Shown here in pieces: positions 8,662 through 24,283 of a stretch of DNA of 42,203 bases. The notes under the pieces are model-generated. The model ran no database searches. It was not told the DNA's origin and saw only the letters and a list, made by a program, of their open reading frames with translations. Source of the stretch: a bacterium (GTDB lineage Bacteria; Bacillota_I; Bacilli_A; Acholeplasmatales; Anaeroplasmataceae); assembly GCA_963588755.1 (NCBI GenBank), contig CAVAIM010000001.1:1-42203 (forward strand). Reading direction: 5' to 3'. Both the position numbers and the translations under genes were made by a program. The stretch's first letter is position 1. Each line of letters opens with the position of its first letter.

Positions 8662-9285
8662 ATGTTAAAAGTTGCATTATTAAATCAATCTGGTTCAAAG
8701 ATTAAAGATTTAAAGTTAAATGAAGAAATCTTCGGAATCGAACCTAATCAACAAGTAGTTTACGATGTAGTAAACGCTCAAAGAGCTGCAATGCGTCAAG
8801 GTACTCATGACACTTTAACTCGTACAGAAGTACGTGGTGGTGGAAGAAAGCCTTGGAAGCAAAAAGGTACAGGTCATGCTCGTCAAGGATCAATCAATGC
8901 TCCACAATGGCGTCATGGTGGTATCGTATTTGGACCTACTCCAAGATCTTATGCTGTTAAGGTTAACGCTAAGGTTAGACAATTAGGTTTAAAGTCAGCT
9001 TTATCTTACCATGTTCAAAACAACACATTAACAGTTGTTGATGATGTTAAGTTTGACTCAATCAAGACTAAGAATTTCGTTGAATTCTTATCAAACATTA
9101 AGGCAGAAGGAAAGACAATCGTTTTAGTTTCTGAATTAACAGCAGAAGTATGCTTATCAGCAAGAAACATTTCAAACGTTTTCGTTTGCCCAGTAGATCA
9201 TTCTTCAGTATATGATATTCTTTCTTACAAGAATTTAGTATTAACTGAAGGTGCAGTAAAATACTTCGAGGAGGTTCTAGCATAA
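8662..9285 (+). CDS. rplD: 50S ribosomal protein L4
   Basis: The [20 protein letters not shown] motif and the gene order. Confidence 0.97.
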
Positions 9286-9286
9286 T

Positions 9287-9571
9287 ATGGAAATCTACAA
9301 CGTTATTAAAGAACCAATTATTACTGAAAAGTCAATGGCTTTAAAGGAAAAGGAAAACAAGTATACATTTGCTTGCGACGTTAAAGCTAACAAAATCGAA
9401 ATCAAAAATGCAGTTGAGAAATTCTTCAATGTTAAAGTTGTTTCAGTAGCAACTTTAAATGTTAAGCCAAAGGCAAAGACAGTTGGAAGATATGCTGGTT
9501 ATACTCAAGCATATAAGAAGGCTATCGTTAAACTTGCTGAAGGTAACAAGATTGACGCATTTGAATTATAA
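9287..9571 (+). CDS. rplW: 50S ribosomal protein L23
   Basis: [10 protein letters not shown]... and its position between rplD and rplB. Confidence 0.95.
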
Positions 9572-9604
9572 TTAATTATATAGGAAATATTATAGGAGAT
9601 TATT

Positions 9605-10438
9605 ATGGCAATTAAAGTTTATAAACCAACTTCAAATGGTCACAGAAACATGTCAGTTTCTACATTCGAAGAAATTACAACAAGCACTCCTGAAAAATCA
9701 TTACTTGCTCCAATTAAGAGTAAGGGTGGAAGAAATAATACTGGTCTTGTAACTGTTCGTCACCAAGGTGGTGGAGTTAAGAGAAAATACAGAATTATTG
9801 ATTTCAAGAGAAATAAGGACAATGTTCCTGGTAAGGTTGCTACTATTGAGTACGATCCAAACAGAACATCAAACATCGCATTAATCGTTTATGCTGATGG
9901 TGAAAAGAGATATATCATTGCTCCATCAGGATTAACAGTTGGTATGACAGTTATCTCTGGTGAAACTGTTGACGTTAAGGTAGGTAATGCTTGCCCAATC
10001 ATCAACATCCCAGTTGGTACAGTTATTCACAACATCGAATTACACCCTGGTAAAGGTGGACAACTTGCTCGTTCAGCTGGTTCATCTGCTCAAATTCTAG
10101 GTCGTGATGAACGTTACGTTCTAGTACGTTTAACTAGTGGTGAAGTTCGTAAGGTTCTAGGTACTTGCCGTGCTACAATCGGTACAGTAGGTAATGAAGA
10201 TCATAGCTTAGTTCGTATCGGTAAAGCTGGTCGTGCTAGACATATGGGATTACGTCCTGAAGTTCGTGGTTCTGTAATGAACCCAGTTGATCACCCACAC
10301 GGAGGTGGAGAAGGTAAAGCTCCAATCGGACACAAGGCTCCAATGACTCCATGGGGTAAGAAGGCTCTAGGTGTTAAGACACGTAGAAATAAGAAGTCTT
10401 CTACAAAATTAATCGTTCGTAGAAGAAACGAAAAGTAA
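9605..10438 (+). CDS. rplB: 50S ribosomal protein L2
   Basis: [22 protein letters not shown] and [13 protein letters not shown] motifs. Confidence 0.97.
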
Positions 10439-21504: not shown

Positions 21505-21520
21505 TTAAATGGTAATATAT

Positions 21521-21551
21521 AAAGAGGCATTTTATGGTGCCTCTTTTTTTG
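21521..21551 (+). terminator. rho-independent terminator of the alpha operon
   Basis: AAAGAGGCA (21521-21529) pairs with TGCCTCTTT (21538-21546), followed by a T-run. Confidence 0.8.
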
Positions 21552-21580
21552 TTGCTTCAAATCGTTTGATATATTATAAT
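21552..21580 (+). promoter_or_regulatory. sigma-A promoter of the inserted three-gene cassette (TTGCTT-17 nt-TATAAT)
   Basis: -35 TTGCTT at 21552-21557 and -10 TATAAT at 21575-21580. SD AAAGGAG precedes ATG 21616. Confidence 0.55.
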
Positions 21581-21615
21581 GAAATTAGGAAGTTAGATTA
21601 CAAAGGAGAAAGTTT

Positions 21616-22833
21616 ATGAGTTCAATAACTACAAAAAAGTATAAAATAGTATTGTTTCAAAGTGGTTTAGCTGAACCTAAAGGTGCATTAACTAAAATGA
21701 TTAACTTAATAAGTGAGGCTAGTAAGAATTTTTTGAAGTATCCAACAATTGTTGATATGTCGCATTTTAATCCTCAAGAAAATTGTTTTTATAGAAAAGA
21801 TAGTGGTTATTATGGTAAATCAACGAAAGCTTTAAATGAATTCAAATTGCTCATAGCCGATATTGTTTCATATGCTAAACAAAATGCTGGTAAAACAATA
21901 CTTGTAGAAACCTATTTAAATAGAGGATTTAATTTAGAGCATAACGTAGACTCTATAGATAATCAAAAGATAAAACTAGAATTTATTGTTGATGAGATTA
22001 AGAAATACCCTGGAGTCTATTTGAGTTTAGTTGGTCATAGTCAAGGTGGATTAGTCAATCTTGAGACAGCAATTGAACGCAATTTTAAAATTAATCAATT
22101 GGTTTCTATATCCACTCCATATTCACCTGTATACTTAGGTAAAAAACTAATATTTTTAGATTTTTTCTTTAAAATTGGTGGACAATCTGCATATGATATG
22201 TTTGTAGAAAAAGAGTATGTTTCATATTATAAATCTTGTGTTGAACAACTTTGCTCAAAAGATTATTACGACACCCTTAAAAATAAATGGAATAATTTAT
22301 CATTAAGACCTAAATTTACTGTTATAACAGGAACTGCAGGTCATCTTTATAATTATTCTCCAGGAATTAGTACACCTTTAGTTTATAATCCTGATACTAT
22401 CACTAAAGAGTCTTTTGATGGCTTAGTAAGGTTCTATGAACAGGCTAATATTGAACATGCTGATTTTATCCATTTAACAGACAAGAATTTATCATGCTAT
22501 TCCGAACAAAAATATGCTCAGTTAAGATGTTATTATCAAAACGGATTTATATTAACGTGTAAGAAAAAATGTTCTTTAAGTTCAGTTAGTGTTGGTAGTA
22601 CTATAATTGATGCTTTATTTGATGTTATAGATCAAGTATTAAAAGGTACAAACATAAATGAACTTGCGGAATTAAAAGTGGTTCAAGCAATTCATGCTGG
22701 ATTAAAAAGAAATAAAGATGCTTTACCTTCAGGATATGATGAATATTATAATATTTATGCAAATGATTATAATCATAACTATATAAGATATAATAAAGAA
22801 ACTATTGCATATTTATTAGCTTTACTAAATTAA
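21616..22833 (+). CDS. alpha/beta-hydrolase fold protein, lipase/esterase-like, with helical C-terminal region
   Basis: The nucleophile elbow is LVGHSQGG (Ser142, codon 22039-22041). A candidate acid is in FDGLV (Asp268) and candidate His residues are H281/H286. There is no signal peptide, and the last ~90 aa look helical. Confidence 0.7.
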   Translation: MSSITTKKYKIVLFQSGLAEPKGALTKMINLISEASKNFLKYPTIVDMSHFNPQENCFYRKDSGYYGKSTKALNEFKLLIADIVSYAKQNAGKTILVETYLNRGFNLEHNVDSIDNQKIKLEFIVDEIKKYPGVYLSLVGHSQGGLVNLETAIERNFKINQLVSISTPYSPVYLGKKLIFLDFFFKIGGQSAYDMFVEKEYVSYYKSCVEQLCSKDYYDTLKNKWNNLSLRPKFTVITGTAGHLYNYSPGISTPLVYNPDTITKESFDGLVRFYEQANIEHADFIHLTDKNLSCYSEQKYAQLRCYYQNGFILTCKKKCSLSSVSVGSTIIDALFDVIDQVLKGTNINELAELKVVQAIHAGLKRNKDALPSGYDEYYNIYANDYNHNYIRYNKETIAYLLALLN

Positions 22834-22848
22834 GTGCTTAGGTATTAT

Positions 22849-23307
22849 ATGAGAAAAATATGCTATTTCTTTTCATGCATTTGTTTTTTGTTGATTCTTT
22901 GTGGATGTCGAGAACCAAATTTAAGTAATTATCATTACGTAGGTGAAAAATGGACAGAAATTGTTGATGATACTATTTATACGATTGATTATTATAAAGA
23001 AGAAGATGATTGGGCTTATTTAACTATTACACGAGATACAGAACTTCTCATTGATGGAGAAGTAATCGATAAAATATATATGAAAGCGGGAGGGCTTTAC
23101 ACTATTGATAAAGTGCTTGCTGATAATACGAAACCGGAGTCTTCTTTTTATTTTTTAGTTTTTCCAATGCAATATTATGTAATTGGACATGATAATGTTG
23201 CAAACATATCTTTACATGCTAAAGATGAGTTCCACGGATATGTCAAAATCTCAATTGAAAGTAGTAAAATCGAACCACAGGATTTATTTTCTATGGTATT
23301 ATATTAA
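22849..23307 (+). CDS. small putative lipoprotein, function unknown
   Basis: MRKICYFFSCICFLLILCGC is a signal peptide with a lipobox-like LCGC. ATG 22849 is preferred over the track GTG 22834, which abuts the upstream stop. Confidence 0.6.
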   Translation: MRKICYFFSCICFLLILCGCREPNLSNYHYVGEKWTEIVDDTIYTIDYYKEEDDWAYLTITRDTELLIDGEVIDKIYMKAGGLYTIDKVLADNTKPESSFYFLVFPMQYYVIGHDNVANISLHAKDEFHGYVKISIESSKIEPQDLFSMVLY

Positions 23308-23336: not shown

Positions 23337-24152
23337 ATGGTTAATAGAAGAACTACTGAATACGAATATAAAATGATATCATCATTTTATGACAATTATT
23401 TGAAGCTACATAATTATTTAAATATTAAAAGAATAGTTTTAGGTATATGTTTTTCTACTAATGAAGAGAATAAAATGATCAAACAATTCCATGAGTTCTT
23501 ATTATGCATGACAATTACTTCAAAAGAAAATATTTTAAATAATCTTAAAAGATGTTCTAAATTTTCACTAGATATAGAAATGAGTGAAGAAACTTGCAAC
23601 ATGCTTGAAAAAATAATTAATGAAGAAACGATGGATGATGTTCAAAAAAGTTTAAGATTATTAGAATGCTCTATGGTTGAAAAAGATGTTAGACAAGCTT
23701 ATATCTTATTTATCTTATCAGGAATGTATTTAAACTTTTATTATAAAGATTATGTTGTAATTCCTGTTTATATGTTTACTCAATTAGAAGCTATAGTTAA
23801 AGATTACGAGATTAGATATATATTTTATAAATCATTAATAGAACAAACATTAAAGTGCCATGATAATAATCTTAAAGAGAAAATTATAAAAGTATATGAA
23901 GAAAATAAAGATAATTTTATTTCCTTTGGTATAGATAAATTATTTCTGTTTGGCTCTATAATTGATGATACATATTATGAACATAGTGATATAGATATTG
24001 TTATTAAGATGAAAGAAAATGGGAATTATTATGAAGCTAGAAAATTGTTGATAGAGTTTAATAAGGAACATTTTTCAATGGATAGTGACATAATTGAAAG
24101 CGATGATTTTATTGCTTTAAATCCTTGCGTAAAAAAGTATAAAGTGTTCTAA
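23337..24152 (+). CDS. protein with unknown ~190-aa N-terminal domain fused to a C-terminal minimal nucleotidyltransferase (MNT/Pol-beta-type) domain
   Basis: LFLFGSIIDDTYYEHSDIDIVI fits the G[GS]-x10-DxD signature (23952-23996). A third acidic cluster, DSDII, lies about 30 aa later. I recognise no motif in the N-terminal part. Confidence 0.65.
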   Translation: MVNRRTTEYEYKMISSFYDNYLKLHNYLNIKRIVLGICFSTNEENKMIKQFHEFLLCMTITSKENILNNLKRCSKFSLDIEMSEETCNMLEKIINEETMDDVQKSLRLLECSMVEKDVRQAYILFILSGMYLNFYYKDYVVIPVYMFTQLEAIVKDYEIRYIFYKSLIEQTLKCHDNNLKEKIIKVYEENKDNFISFGIDKLFLFGSIIDDTYYEHSDIDIVIKMKENGNYYEARKLLIEFNKEHFSMDSDIIESDDFIALNPCVKKYKVF

Positions 24153-24188
24153 GCATTATGTTATTTGATTTAAACTAATAATTTTAAT

Positions 24189-24215
24189 AAGGCATTTATA
24201 ATAGTGCCTTTTTTG
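24189..24215 (+). terminator. rho-independent terminator closing the cassette
   Basis: AAGGCA (24189-24194) pairs with TGCCTT (24205-24210), followed by TTTT. Confidence 0.65.
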
Positions 24216-24247
24216 AATTGTCAAATGTTTTATTATCAAGTAAAATG

Positions 24248-24256
24248 TGATACAAT
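24248..24256 (+). promoter_or_regulatory. extended -10 promoter element (TGaTACAAT) for the ecf operon
   Basis: TG at 24248-24249 and TACAAT at 24251-24256. The motif is nearly identical to the S10 promoter TGTGATAGAAT. There is no good -35. Confidence 0.4.
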
Positions 24257-24283
24257 ACTTTAAGATAAGGAGATGTGATTTAA

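Follow-up and report, generated by a model that had tools for sequence, protein, structure and literature searches.

The locus studied here raises the question of why a lipase-like enzyme lacking any export signal is encoded beside a lipoprotein. We addressed it in a window of 42,203 nucleotides (the whole stretch of DNA analysed) from the genome of an Anaeroplasmataceae bacterium. [quoted passage not shown] Comparison with related loci pointed to a putative antibacterial lipase toxin with a lipoprotein immunity protein and a nucleotidyltransferase partner, a reading that we hold to be about equally likely to be right or wrong.

The first gene (positions 21616 to 22833, plus strand) encodes a lipase-like alpha/beta hydrolase of 405 amino acids without signal peptide, as defined from the list of open reading frames, an alignment of 37 homologues and an AF2 model (pLDDT 89.7, pTM 0.90). 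The nucleophile elbow LVGHSQGG with Ser142 and the Asp268 of an FDGLV motif, both named in the original prediction, were borne out, as residues G140 to G145 and Asp268 are unchanged in 37/37 homologues. In the model, the elbow (G140-H-S142-Q-G-G, a GxSxG motif) lies between strand 134-141 and helix 143-154, and Asp268 directly follows strand 261-267. The histidine is a different one from that expected. His281 and His286, first taken as catalytic, are kept in only 12 and 8 of the 37 homologues, respectively, whereas His387, in a YxH motif near the C-terminus, is found in all 37 and is the sole invariant histidine outside the elbow. This residue lies in the loop preceding the last helix, and the Ser-Asp-His order is canonical in the model and in the homologues. 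The catalytic triad predicted from this conservation is Ser142-Asp268-His387.

The position of the histidine bears on the domain organization of the protein, the last ~90 residues of which had been described as a separate helical module. In the model, residues 288-382 form an excursion from strand 283-287 to the His387 loop, comprising a four-cysteine loop and variable helices (~320-375), and the final helix (394-404) closes the hydrolase fold. Because His387 follows these helices, the helical region belongs to the catalytic domain; with His387 as the catalytic histidine, it would be an insertion within one alpha/beta hydrolase domain. A second variable region, the lid, covers residues 173-226; the variable segments span 181-210 and 301-375. 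The conserved cysteines 294, 305, 315 and 319 (spacing C-x10-C-x9-C-x3-C) could form a cytoplasmic zinc site, which would suit an intracellular enzyme. The absence of an export signal, as originally proposed, was confirmed: no N-terminal hydrophobic segment is present (top 12-residue hydropathy of 0.81 within the first 36 residues), and the model assigns residues 9-15 to a core beta-strand.

A Foldseek search of the PDB gave family I.1/I.2 bacterial lipases, DUF915, PlaB and LCAT as top matches of the hydrolase (probability 1.0, E ~1e-5), and profile matches to PGAP1, DUF915, DUF676 and palmitoyl-thioesterase families were weak but consistent. Searches against Pfam, NCBIfam and the PDB (phmmer) returned only sub-threshold matches in the elbow region, and PHROGs and PADLOC gave nothing for either the hydrolase or the lipoprotein. 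The protein is thus predicted to be a single-domain, strongly diverged serine hydrolase of the lipase/phospholipase type. Its sister family consists of Sec-secreted or surface-located lipases.

The adjoining gene (22849 to 23307, plus strand) encodes a small surface lipoprotein, the candidate immunity protein, recognized from the list of open reading frames, its signal peptide and lipobox, and an alignment of partners. The ATG at 22849, giving 152 residues, is the likely start and was preferred over a GTG at 22834 that is also open. The N-terminus reads MRK, then ICYFFSCICFLLIL, then C-G-C, with a 12-mer hydropathy of 2.96 and an L-C-G-C lipobox; the original assignment as a lipoprotein (from the motif LILCGC) therefore stands. 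The mature protein would begin at Cys20. Among 15 cassette partners, 90% or more retain the lipobox cysteine, one homologue gave a faint LPAM_1 match, and an NLSNYH motif after the lipobox is common to the protein and its close relatives. No match was found in Pfam or NCBIfam at E<=1, in PADLOC or in the PDB.

The lipoprotein is the fastest-evolving member of the cassette, at about twice the rate of the hydrolase. Pairs of lipoproteins are on average 19% identical, against 30% for the nucleotidyltransferase and 40% for the hydrolase, and lipoprotein identity falls below hydrolase identity in 36/36 pairs. At L001, where both genes were duplicated together, identity is 67% between the hydrolases and 36% between the lipoproteins. 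The dN/dS ratio of tandem lipoprotein copies is 0.4-0.9, raised but not above 1, versus 0.10 for the hydrolase pair. Tandem arrays contain three lipoprotein copies at L057 and two at L011. Orphan lipoproteins occur in three genomes without a full-length hydrolase match (G220, G221 and G265) and on contig C111 of the genome to which the window belongs. In two further genomes (G240 and G235), the hydrolase is pseudogenised and the adjoining lipoprotein intact; in G240, the nucleotidyltransferase is intact as well. Most weak matches of a family-wide lipoprotein search (E ~1e-4) covered only the signal peptide and lipobox and were discounted. A profile search of a set of 5.8 billion proteins gave only 4 lipoprotein and 6 nucleotidyltransferase matches, which limits the counting of orphans.

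Downstream lies a gene (23337 to 24152, plus strand) for a cytoplasmic Pol-beta/MNT (MntA-like) nucleotidyltransferase of 271 residues, identified from profile and structure matches. It is a third co-inherited gene, absent from the original prediction. Residues 1-180 form an all-alpha domain and residues 181-271 a minimal C-terminal domain of the MNT/MntA type. This domain was examined for the MNT signature, that is, hG[GS]-x9-13-D-x-[DE] plus a third acidic residue in a Pol-beta fold; G206-S207, S217-D218-x-D220 and D251 are present and invariant in 16 sequences. It matches PF18765 (1e-8) and the MNT structures 2rff, 5yep and 7bxo, the nearest structures being protein-AMPylating MntA/MNT antitoxins. 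In PADLOC-DB v2, the only match is PDC-S09, a generic candidate domain of ~100 residues (4e-12). In the N-terminal domain, only K12, Y27 and K31 are invariant. A HEPN identity was rejected for this domain, as it has no HEPN motif (Rx4-6H); no cassette protein gave a HEPN match. A Fic identity was likewise rejected, the Fic motif being absent and the only likeness a weak fold match to the N-terminal domain of a Fic-family protein (8uqu, E ~0.1). Full-length relatives of the nucleotidyltransferase accompany the hydrolase, except for one pseudogenised copy in G263.

The three genes are bordered by related sequences. On the left, the rplQ terminator hairpin (21521 to 21546, plus strand; terminator scan) is followed by ~70 nt, up to position 21615, that duplicate the ecfA promoter/leader in diverged form. 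On the right, a second hairpin (24189 to 24210, plus strand; terminator scan and alignment) duplicates the rplQ terminator, again in diverged form, and precedes the resident ecfA promoter/leader, which extends to 24283. These borders were obtained by aligning the left with the right border and the locus with the rplQ/ecfA junctions of the two nearest relatives (G237 and G240), where the site is empty. As judged from these alignments, the cassette is an insertion into the rplQ/ecfA junction.

To place this locus among others, we compiled related loci, which come from MAGs of uncultured gut Bacilli that are Anaeroplasmataceae-like and in part wall-less. Hydrolase and lipoprotein are adjacent in ~15 loci. 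In the window and in most of these, the nucleotidyltransferase adjoins them (L001, L002, L003/L005, L011, L012, L014, L052, L053, L056 and L057, among others), and the flanks are unrelated. L013 and L054 have no nucleotidyltransferase, and two further records end at the hydrolase. The distribution is patchy (of 307 genomes in the order, ~10 carry a full-length copy), and the cassette is often pseudogenised. The cassette of L002 is carried by a prophage, between ParB-methylase and TerL genes, and that of L003 adjoins the conflict genes AAA_23/MC2/CTD6. In two distant lineages, the cassette has a Hol44 holin, a giant RHS protein without signal and paralogues of the nucleotidyltransferase as neighbours, and sigma/HTH regulators are found nearby. 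Duplications involve the hydrolase with the lipoprotein, or the lipoprotein alone, and not the nucleotidyltransferase (L001, L011 and L057). These comparisons show the cassette to be a self-contained mobile unit of three genes with the hydrolase as its conserved core. Pattern scans for additional loci gave two true cassette matches in genome contigs, none in viral contigs and only unrelated GHSQGG hydrolases in metagenome contigs; tblastn against isolate phages and plasmids gave no match. A literature search found no paper on a cassette of hydrolase, lipoprotein and nucleotidyltransferase.

A search for T7SS genes had been suggested together with the TslA comparison. Six cassette hosts, namely the organism of the window (genome 88% complete) and five others (four of them at least 94% complete), yielded no WXG100 protein. 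The window's genome contains only two open reading frames with an FtsK_SpoIIIE domain, the match being strong in one of at least 642 residues and weak in one of 819 residues; given how large they are and that one domain alone was matched, we read both as non-EssC. The RHS protein was not found in this genome, nor was a Hol44 holin, in a weak search whose model was positive in no control genome. Export of the hydrolase is by neither Sec nor T7SS, and the lack of a signal peptide, together with the failure to find T7SS, Hol44 holin or RHS genes in this genome, counts against the hydrolase meeting an extracellular lipoprotein. Penicillin-binding proteins and FtsW were not found in the window's genus. 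Wall-lessness as a general context of the cassette was rejected, since penicillin-binding proteins are encoded by three other hosts.

A "reverse" lipase of the TslA/Tsl type, secreted by T7SSb by means of a C-terminal LXG-like targeting domain behind an N-terminal lipase and neutralised by a lipoprotein, was the template of the original prediction. A signal-less lipase-like enzyme beside a lipoprotein, with helices near its C-terminus, does recall such a system. The template nevertheless failed on several points: His387 comes after the helices, the partner genes TlaA1/TlaA2 and a DUF576 lipoprotein were not found at the locus, and the six host genomes contain no WXG100 protein, the two FtsK_SpoIIIE open reading frames being read as non-EssC. 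Without WXG100 proteins in these genomes, Tla partners or DUF576, membership of the TslA/T7SS group is rejected, and we consider this explanation highly improbable. Another reading, to which we grant a small probability, is that of an ordinary lipase or esterase, serving fatty-acid scavenging or lipoprotein/lipid remodelling in a wall-less bacterium with a small genome, with the lipoprotein as a Lif-like folding helper. The missing penicillin-binding proteins and FtsW, and a sister family of secreted surface lipases, would agree with this, as would the family I.1/I.2 lipases that head the structural matches and need an adjacent membrane-anchored foldase (2es4, 9g8u). Lif-dependent lipases are Sec-exported, however, whereas the hydrolase has no signal peptide, and its neighbour has no Lipase_chap match. 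A folding helper would also fit poorly with a lipoprotein that is small, hypervariable, devoid of any other Pfam match and present as arrays and orphans, and an ordinary lipase with a cassette that is accessory, mobile, often pseudogenised and prophage-borne.

The nucleotidyltransferase raises a more serious alternative. To our knowledge, no lipase toxin/immunity pair described so far contains a nucleotidyltransferase that is strictly conserved and catalytically intact, and such a gene would be no less at home in a toxin-antitoxin or defence system. The cassette could then be an anti-phage defence, abortive-infection or type VII toxin-antitoxin-like module, in which a cytoplasmic hydrolase would destroy the membrane, the nucleotidyltransferase would neutralise or sense the hydrolase, and the lipoprotein would be a surface sensor or superinfection-exclusion factor. 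Such a module would agree with a hydrolase without export signal and with a nucleotidyltransferase whose full-length relatives accompany the hydrolase (bar the pseudogenised G263 copy) and whose domain matches PDC-S09 and MntA antitoxins; it would also suit a mobile, self-contained, patchy cassette that can lie in a prophage (L002) or beside conflict genes (L003). It is harder to reconcile with the lipoprotein, since an extracytoplasmic protein cannot neutralise a cytoplasmic enzyme, and since orphans and arrays of the kind seen here are typical of immunity genes. Moreover, the units that duplicate leave the nucleotidyltransferase out, L013 lacks it altogether, neither hydrolase nor lipoprotein matches a PADLOC model, and the cassette is associated with an RHS protein, a holin and sigma factors. 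We regard this module as unlikely, though clearly less so than the two explanations above.

The toxin/immunity reading is favoured, in comparisons of gene sequence and content, by the fastest divergence being that of the lipoprotein, by its arrays and orphans, and by intact lipoproteins beside decayed hydrolases. The holin, nucleotidyltransferase paralogues and RHS protein beside the cassette in two lineages, and a sister family that is Sec-secreted or surface-located, also speak for it; a dN/dS that does not exceed 1 and the possible cytoplasmic zinc site speak against it. The general idea of a lipase toxin with lipoprotein immunity was thus reinforced by the adjacency of the two genes in ~15 loci, the twofold rate and the pattern of arrays, orphans and decay, while its T7SS template was lost. 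Under the toxin/immunity reading, the hydrolase would be an antagonistic lipase attacking the outer face of target-cell membranes, and immunity would come from its cognate lipoprotein, anchored by lipid on the same outer face. The cytoplasmic nucleotidyltransferase would be a partner on the producer side, most plausibly restraining or regulating the hydrolase by nucleotidylylation, as MntA does HepT. The toxicity of the hydrolase, its lipid substrate and export, its binding by the lipoprotein and the target of the nucleotidyltransferase are what we infer on this basis. An extended version, which we judge rather improbable, would divide immunity between two compartments: the nucleotidyltransferase would silence the lipase in the cytoplasm by type VII toxin-antitoxin chemistry, the lipoprotein would guard the outer face, and the toxin would exit by holin, lysis or vesicle, with no need for a dedicated secretion machine. 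In wall-less gut Bacilli, with their directly exposed membranes, such a design, if true, would be fitting, and the nucleotidyltransferase paralogues beside signal-less RHS proteins would then point to a module for toxin handling that is general in this clade.

If the toxin/immunity reading is true, the cassette represents an undescribed family of antibacterial lipase toxins with lipoprotein immunity in uncultured, partly wall-less gut Bacilli. All characterised lipase toxins known to us are defined by type VI and type VII systems. The family would be independent of both, and an enzymatic nucleotidyltransferase as third component would be unprecedented in such pairs. It would offer a handle on competition among small-genome, Mollicutes-like gut bacteria and pose the question of how signal-less toxins are released yet stay harmless to the producer. 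A defence module would instead be a new kind of system, in which a lipase is the effector and a lipoprotein forms the surface component.

Several known systems resemble parts of the cassette. The GHSQGG elbow is shared with family I.1/I.2 lipases of Pseudomonas, Burkholderia and Proteus, and the structural neighbours (2lip, 1ex9, 4gw3, 3ds8) include DUF915/PGAP1-like proteins, with TM-scores of only 0.3-0.5 and 10-16% identity. Unlike family I.1/I.2, the hydrolase has a Cys-rich/helical excursion of ~95 residues between strand beta-8 and the catalytic histidine, and neither a signal peptide nor Lif. The Tle/Tli pairs of Gram-negative type VI secretion systems, in which Tli is periplasmic or a lipoprotein, share, by analogy only, the logic of a GxSxG lipase toxin and of immunity on the attacked membrane face; here, the hosts are monoderm or wall-less Bacilli, no Tle/Tli homology was detected and type VI delivery is not applicable. 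In Staphylococcus aureus, TslA/TilA (Tsl1) and TslM/TilM (Tsl2) are T7SSb-secreted phospholipase toxins with membrane-bound immunity (PMC10730906, PMC13560087). TslA has its triad S164/D224/H251 wholly in the N-terminal domain and a G-x-L motif at 310-312, and needs the partner genes TlaA1/TlaA2 and the DUF576 lipoprotein TilA (PMC10730906). As in TslA/TslM, a signal-less Ser-Asp-His lipase-like enzyme of Bacillota stands beside a membrane-anchored candidate immunity protein, the genes for which vary in copy number and form arrays. The cassette shows no sequence relationship to these systems and no Tla, DUF576 or T7SS genes were found here; a separate LXG-like domain is also lacking, because the catalytic histidine is C-terminal to the helical segment. 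The MntA-like nucleotidyltransferase, a fixed third gene here, further sets the cassette apart from them. The HEPN/MNT (HepT-MntA) pairs are type VII toxin-antitoxin systems whose toxin is neutralised when MntA AMPylates it (PDB 7bxo, 6m6u, 7ae9). Unlike HepT-MntA, the cassette has no HEPN partner, and its nucleotidyltransferase bears an all-alpha N-terminal domain of 180 residues; like these systems, it carries a C-terminal MNT domain with the full catalytic signature.

The rplQ-ecfA1 gap of this AT-rich window (GC ~25-40% in 1-kb windows) holds three ORFs, all on the forward strand. It is flanked by the ribosomal-protein/secY-adk-infA-rpmJ-rpsM-rpsK-rpoA-rplQ operon and an ecfA1-ecfA2-ecfT-truA-tmk block, gene names being assigned from reading the ORF translations. 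ORF calls gave a hydrolase of 405 aa (21616-22833), a lipoprotein of 157 or 152 aa depending on the start (22834 or 22849 to 23307) and a nucleotidyltransferase of 271 aa (23337-24152). The lipoprotein ORF most plausibly starts at ATG 22849, with AGG just upstream; from there, MRK, a 14-residue hydrophobic stretch and L-C-G-C make up a lipoprotein signal peptide, as expected from the original prediction of a hydrolase-lipoprotein pair. The adjacency of these two genes recurs elsewhere, but the third gene had been overlooked.

The predicted LVGHSQGG elbow and FDGLV motif are present in the hydrolase, and a hydropathy scan confirmed the proposed lack of an export signal, finding no N-terminal hydrophobic segment or signal peptide. 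Sequence searches returned only sub-threshold matches in the elbow region (PGAP1, DUF915, Palm_thioest, DUF676 and monoglyceride lipase). The family is small: clustering at 90% identity left 71 clusters, and a set of 1.8 billion proteins contained 85 representatives at the 50% level. Most members measure ~400-425 aa and can be aligned from end to end, shorter entries being fragments; named sources are MAGs called “Bacilli bacterium” or “Anaeroplasmataceae bacterium”, and one nr name begins “Erysipelotri...”. Invariant positions in a 37-sequence alignment include G17, Q117, GHSQGG 140-145, S164, TPY 167-169, W225, P232, D268 and H387, and four cysteines (294, 305, 315, 319) are kept in 33-35 sequences. 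Variability peaks in segments 181-210, 241-255 and 301-375, while residues 376-405 are conserved. At the N-terminus, Met-Ser-Ser (window 21616-21624) shows little or no variation among family members, despite residues 1-5 having a pLDDT below 50 and lying outside the folded core; it may serve as a signal for processing, modification or recognition.

The AF2 model of the hydrolase is confident (pLDDT 89.7, pTM 0.90) and canonical in topology. Strand 134-141 leads into Ser142 and helix 143-154, a helical lid occupies 173-226, and Asp268 immediately follows strand 261-267. After strand 283-287 comes an excursion of ~95 residues, consisting of the Cys loop and then helices 326-363 (lower confidence), and His387 lies in the loop preceding the closing helix 394-404. 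The closest Foldseek matches were family I.1/I.2 bacterial lipases (2lip, 1ex9, 4gw3), DUF915 (3ds8), PlaB and LCAT, with probability 1.0 and E ~1e-5 at a TM of only 0.3-0.5; in a viral structure library, PGAP1/LCAT-like proteins of giant viruses were closest. Alignment, topology and structural neighbours thus identify a predicted single-domain, highly diverged lipase-like serine hydrolase. Two details of the original prediction have to be revised: the putative catalytic histidines 281 and 286 are kept in 12/37 and 8/37 sequences, with His387 being invariant, and the supposedly separate C-terminal helical module is, in the model, an insertion ahead of the catalytic His, followed by the closing helix.

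The third protein matches Polbeta/NTP_transf_2, MntA and the PADLOC candidate PDC-S09, and its minimal-nucleotidyltransferase signature is invariant (G206-S207, S217-D218-x-D220, D251). Its model (pLDDT 90.8) comprises a 180-residue all-alpha domain, with only a weak structural match to a Fic-family N-domain, and an MNT domain whose closest structures are AMPylating MntA/MNT antitoxins (7bxo, 6m6u, 8xeo). Full-length relatives within the host family occur in hydrolase-carrying genomes, plus one pseudogenised copy in genome G263.

A hydrolase-lipoprotein (HYD-lipo) unit is common to the genomic contexts of hydrolase homologues, usually with the nucleotidyltransferase (NT) as third gene. The order HYD-lipo-NT, found in the window between rplQ and ecfA, is also that of loci L014, L052 and L053, of L002, within a phage genome between ParB-methylase and terminase genes, and of L003/L005, beside AAA_23/MC2/CTD6 genes and followed by a Hol44 holin, two NT paralogues and a signal-less RHS giant. 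Variants are HYD-lipo-HYD-lipo-NT after polC (L001), HYD-lipo-lipo-NT (L011), lipo-NT-HYD-lipo (L012), lipo x3-HYD-NT (L057), HYD-lipo without nucleotidyltransferase (L013), and lipo-HYD-NT-holin-NT-RHS together with a second, degraded cassette (L056). Several loci are flanked by sigma-70 region-4 or HTH proteins. In L002, the cassette is separated from the large terminase gene by Amidoligase_2 and GGACT/AIG2 genes (8888-10336). The sub-locus downstream of the cassette (L003 9634-13239, L056 12135-18999), in which a Hol44-family holin is joined by one or two ~280-aa NT paralogues and a giant RHS/YD protein lacking a signal peptide, is conserved in two distant lineages, suggesting that these bacteria may release signal-less toxins by a holin-linked route.

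Cassette lipoproteins share the lipobox Cys, to which close relatives add a C-x3-5-DLT[ND]YH motif, and gave no match in Pfam, NCBIfam, PADLOC or PDB sequences. The lipoprotein is always the fastest-evolving component, with a mean pairwise identity of 19%, whereas hydrolases average 40% and nucleotidyltransferases 30%; its identity was below that of the hydrolase in 36/36 pairs, which include non-independent kin. Among the products of one shared duplication in L001, the two hydrolases have 67% identity and the two lipoproteins 36%, the three tandem lipoproteins of L057 are 87-91% identical, and dN/dS is 0.4-0.9 among tandem lipoprotein copies versus 0.10 for the hydrolase pair. Duplication involves the lipoprotein, by itself or together with the hydrolase, but not the nucleotidyltransferase. 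Orphan lipoproteins, away from any HYD or NT, occur in three genomes without a full-length hydrolase match in the search of the order (G220, G221, G265) and at the end of contig C111 of the window's own genome. Genomes G240 and G235 carry pseudogenised hydrolases beside intact lipoprotein genes, the nucleotidyltransferase of G240 also being intact. On C111 (L084, 1796-4245), two lipoprotein genes follow an HTH gene and a 365-aa HipA-like ORF, both assigned by eye; the second lipoprotein gene, truncated by the contig edge, is a cassette-family member (E 4e-17) that lacks an upstream hydrolase. In L012 (7224-7742), the 172-aa lipoprotein encoded after the hydrolase looks chimeric, its N-terminal part resembling cassette lipoproteins and being followed by an Endonuclea_NS_2-like segment (GGHLIGRRFGG).

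Full-length cassette hydrolases were found in ~10 of 307 genomes of the order; stop codons interrupt several copies. The two nearest relatives, G240 (rplQ 99% identical) and G237 (97%), have an rplQ-ecfA spacing of only ~117 bp and carry the cassette elsewhere. In the window, an ~85-nt unit comprising rplQ terminator and ecfA promoter/leader stands in two diverged copies on either side of the cassette (21505-21615 and 24153-24283), with terminator hairpins detected by scanning at 21521-21546 and 24189-24210. Transcription of the cassette may therefore start from an ecfA promoter copy, and its insertion may have involved target duplication or recombination. Within the genus, the rplQ-ecfA junction is a hot spot for cargo, three other species having different or extra DNA there. 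G236 carries an unrelated 172-aa lipoprotein (L111 2091-2609), G238 a small membrane protein and a 216-aa protein that is SIMPL/DUF541-like by eye (L113 2025-2895), and in G239 the opening of the same 216-aa protein follows rplQ (L112 after 1857).

Genome-wide searches covered the window's own assembly (1.22 Mb, 225 contigs, 88% complete). Neither WXG100, a Hol44 holin nor an RHS protein was found in it (for the holin a weak negative, since its model gave no hit in any control genome), WXG100 was also not found in five other cassette hosts, and its only two FtsK_SpoIIIE-domain ORFs were read as non-EssC; the T7SS expected from the original prediction was therefore not recovered. Penicillin-binding proteins and FtsW/RodA were not found in the window's genus, as would fit a wall-less, Mollicutes-like organism. 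The cassette does not require a wall-less host, since penicillin-binding proteins are present in other genomes that carry it. Members of a sister hydrolase family (GHSRGG) are surface proteins secreted by Sec, and in some the lipase domain (GHSRGG...GTPYLGS...NDGFVD...VHNLE) forms the N-terminus of a ~1400-aa protein with a signal peptide (L060 6111-10517, L061 5751-9959). By eye, these long proteins also have repeats of LRR type and a C-terminal tail rich in Gly and Asn, and own-genome contig C178 (L048, 59-619) holds a fragment of one.

We see about an even chance that the cassette encodes a lipase toxin, an immunity lipoprotein and a cytoplasmic nucleotidyltransferase that would safeguard or regulate the toxin. 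Anchored outside by its lipid, the lipoprotein would act as immunity, since on topology it would meet the enzyme only outside the cell. Such a role fits its fast divergence, tandem arrays, orphans and survival beside decayed hydrolases, as well as a duplicating unit that excludes the nucleotidyltransferase, the proximity of holin and signal-less RHS genes in two distant lineages and the secreted sister family. Against a toxin and its immunity protein stand the lack of a signal peptide on the hydrolase and the negative searches for WXG100, EssC-like, Hol44 and RHS genes in the 88% complete host assembly. The conserved, predicted catalytically intact MntA-like enzyme also has no place in known lipase toxin pairs. 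Such an enzyme would suit a type VII toxin-antitoxin or a defence system, and a defence, abortive-infection or toxin-antitoxin-like module is a less probable but serious alternative. That the hydrolase is an ordinary lipase with a helper seems improbable.

Our literature search found no paper on this cassette. In S. aureus TslA, the whole triad (S164/D224/H251) lies within the N-terminal domain, a separate C-terminal LXG-like domain binds TlaA1/TlaA2, immunity comes from a DUF576 lipoprotein and secretion depends on T7SSb (PMC10730906); TslM is a second family of the same build (PMC13560087). Each of these defining features was looked for and none was found in the cassette or the searched genomes, so while the toxin/immunity-like pair of the original prediction gains support, its T7SS/TslA template does not, and a true TslA-type substrate is very improbable. 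Tle/Tli of the Gram-negative T6SS offers an analogy only. HepT-MntA, in which an MNT enzyme uses AMPylation to neutralise a toxin, is a precedent, but it includes a HEPN protein and the cassette has none.
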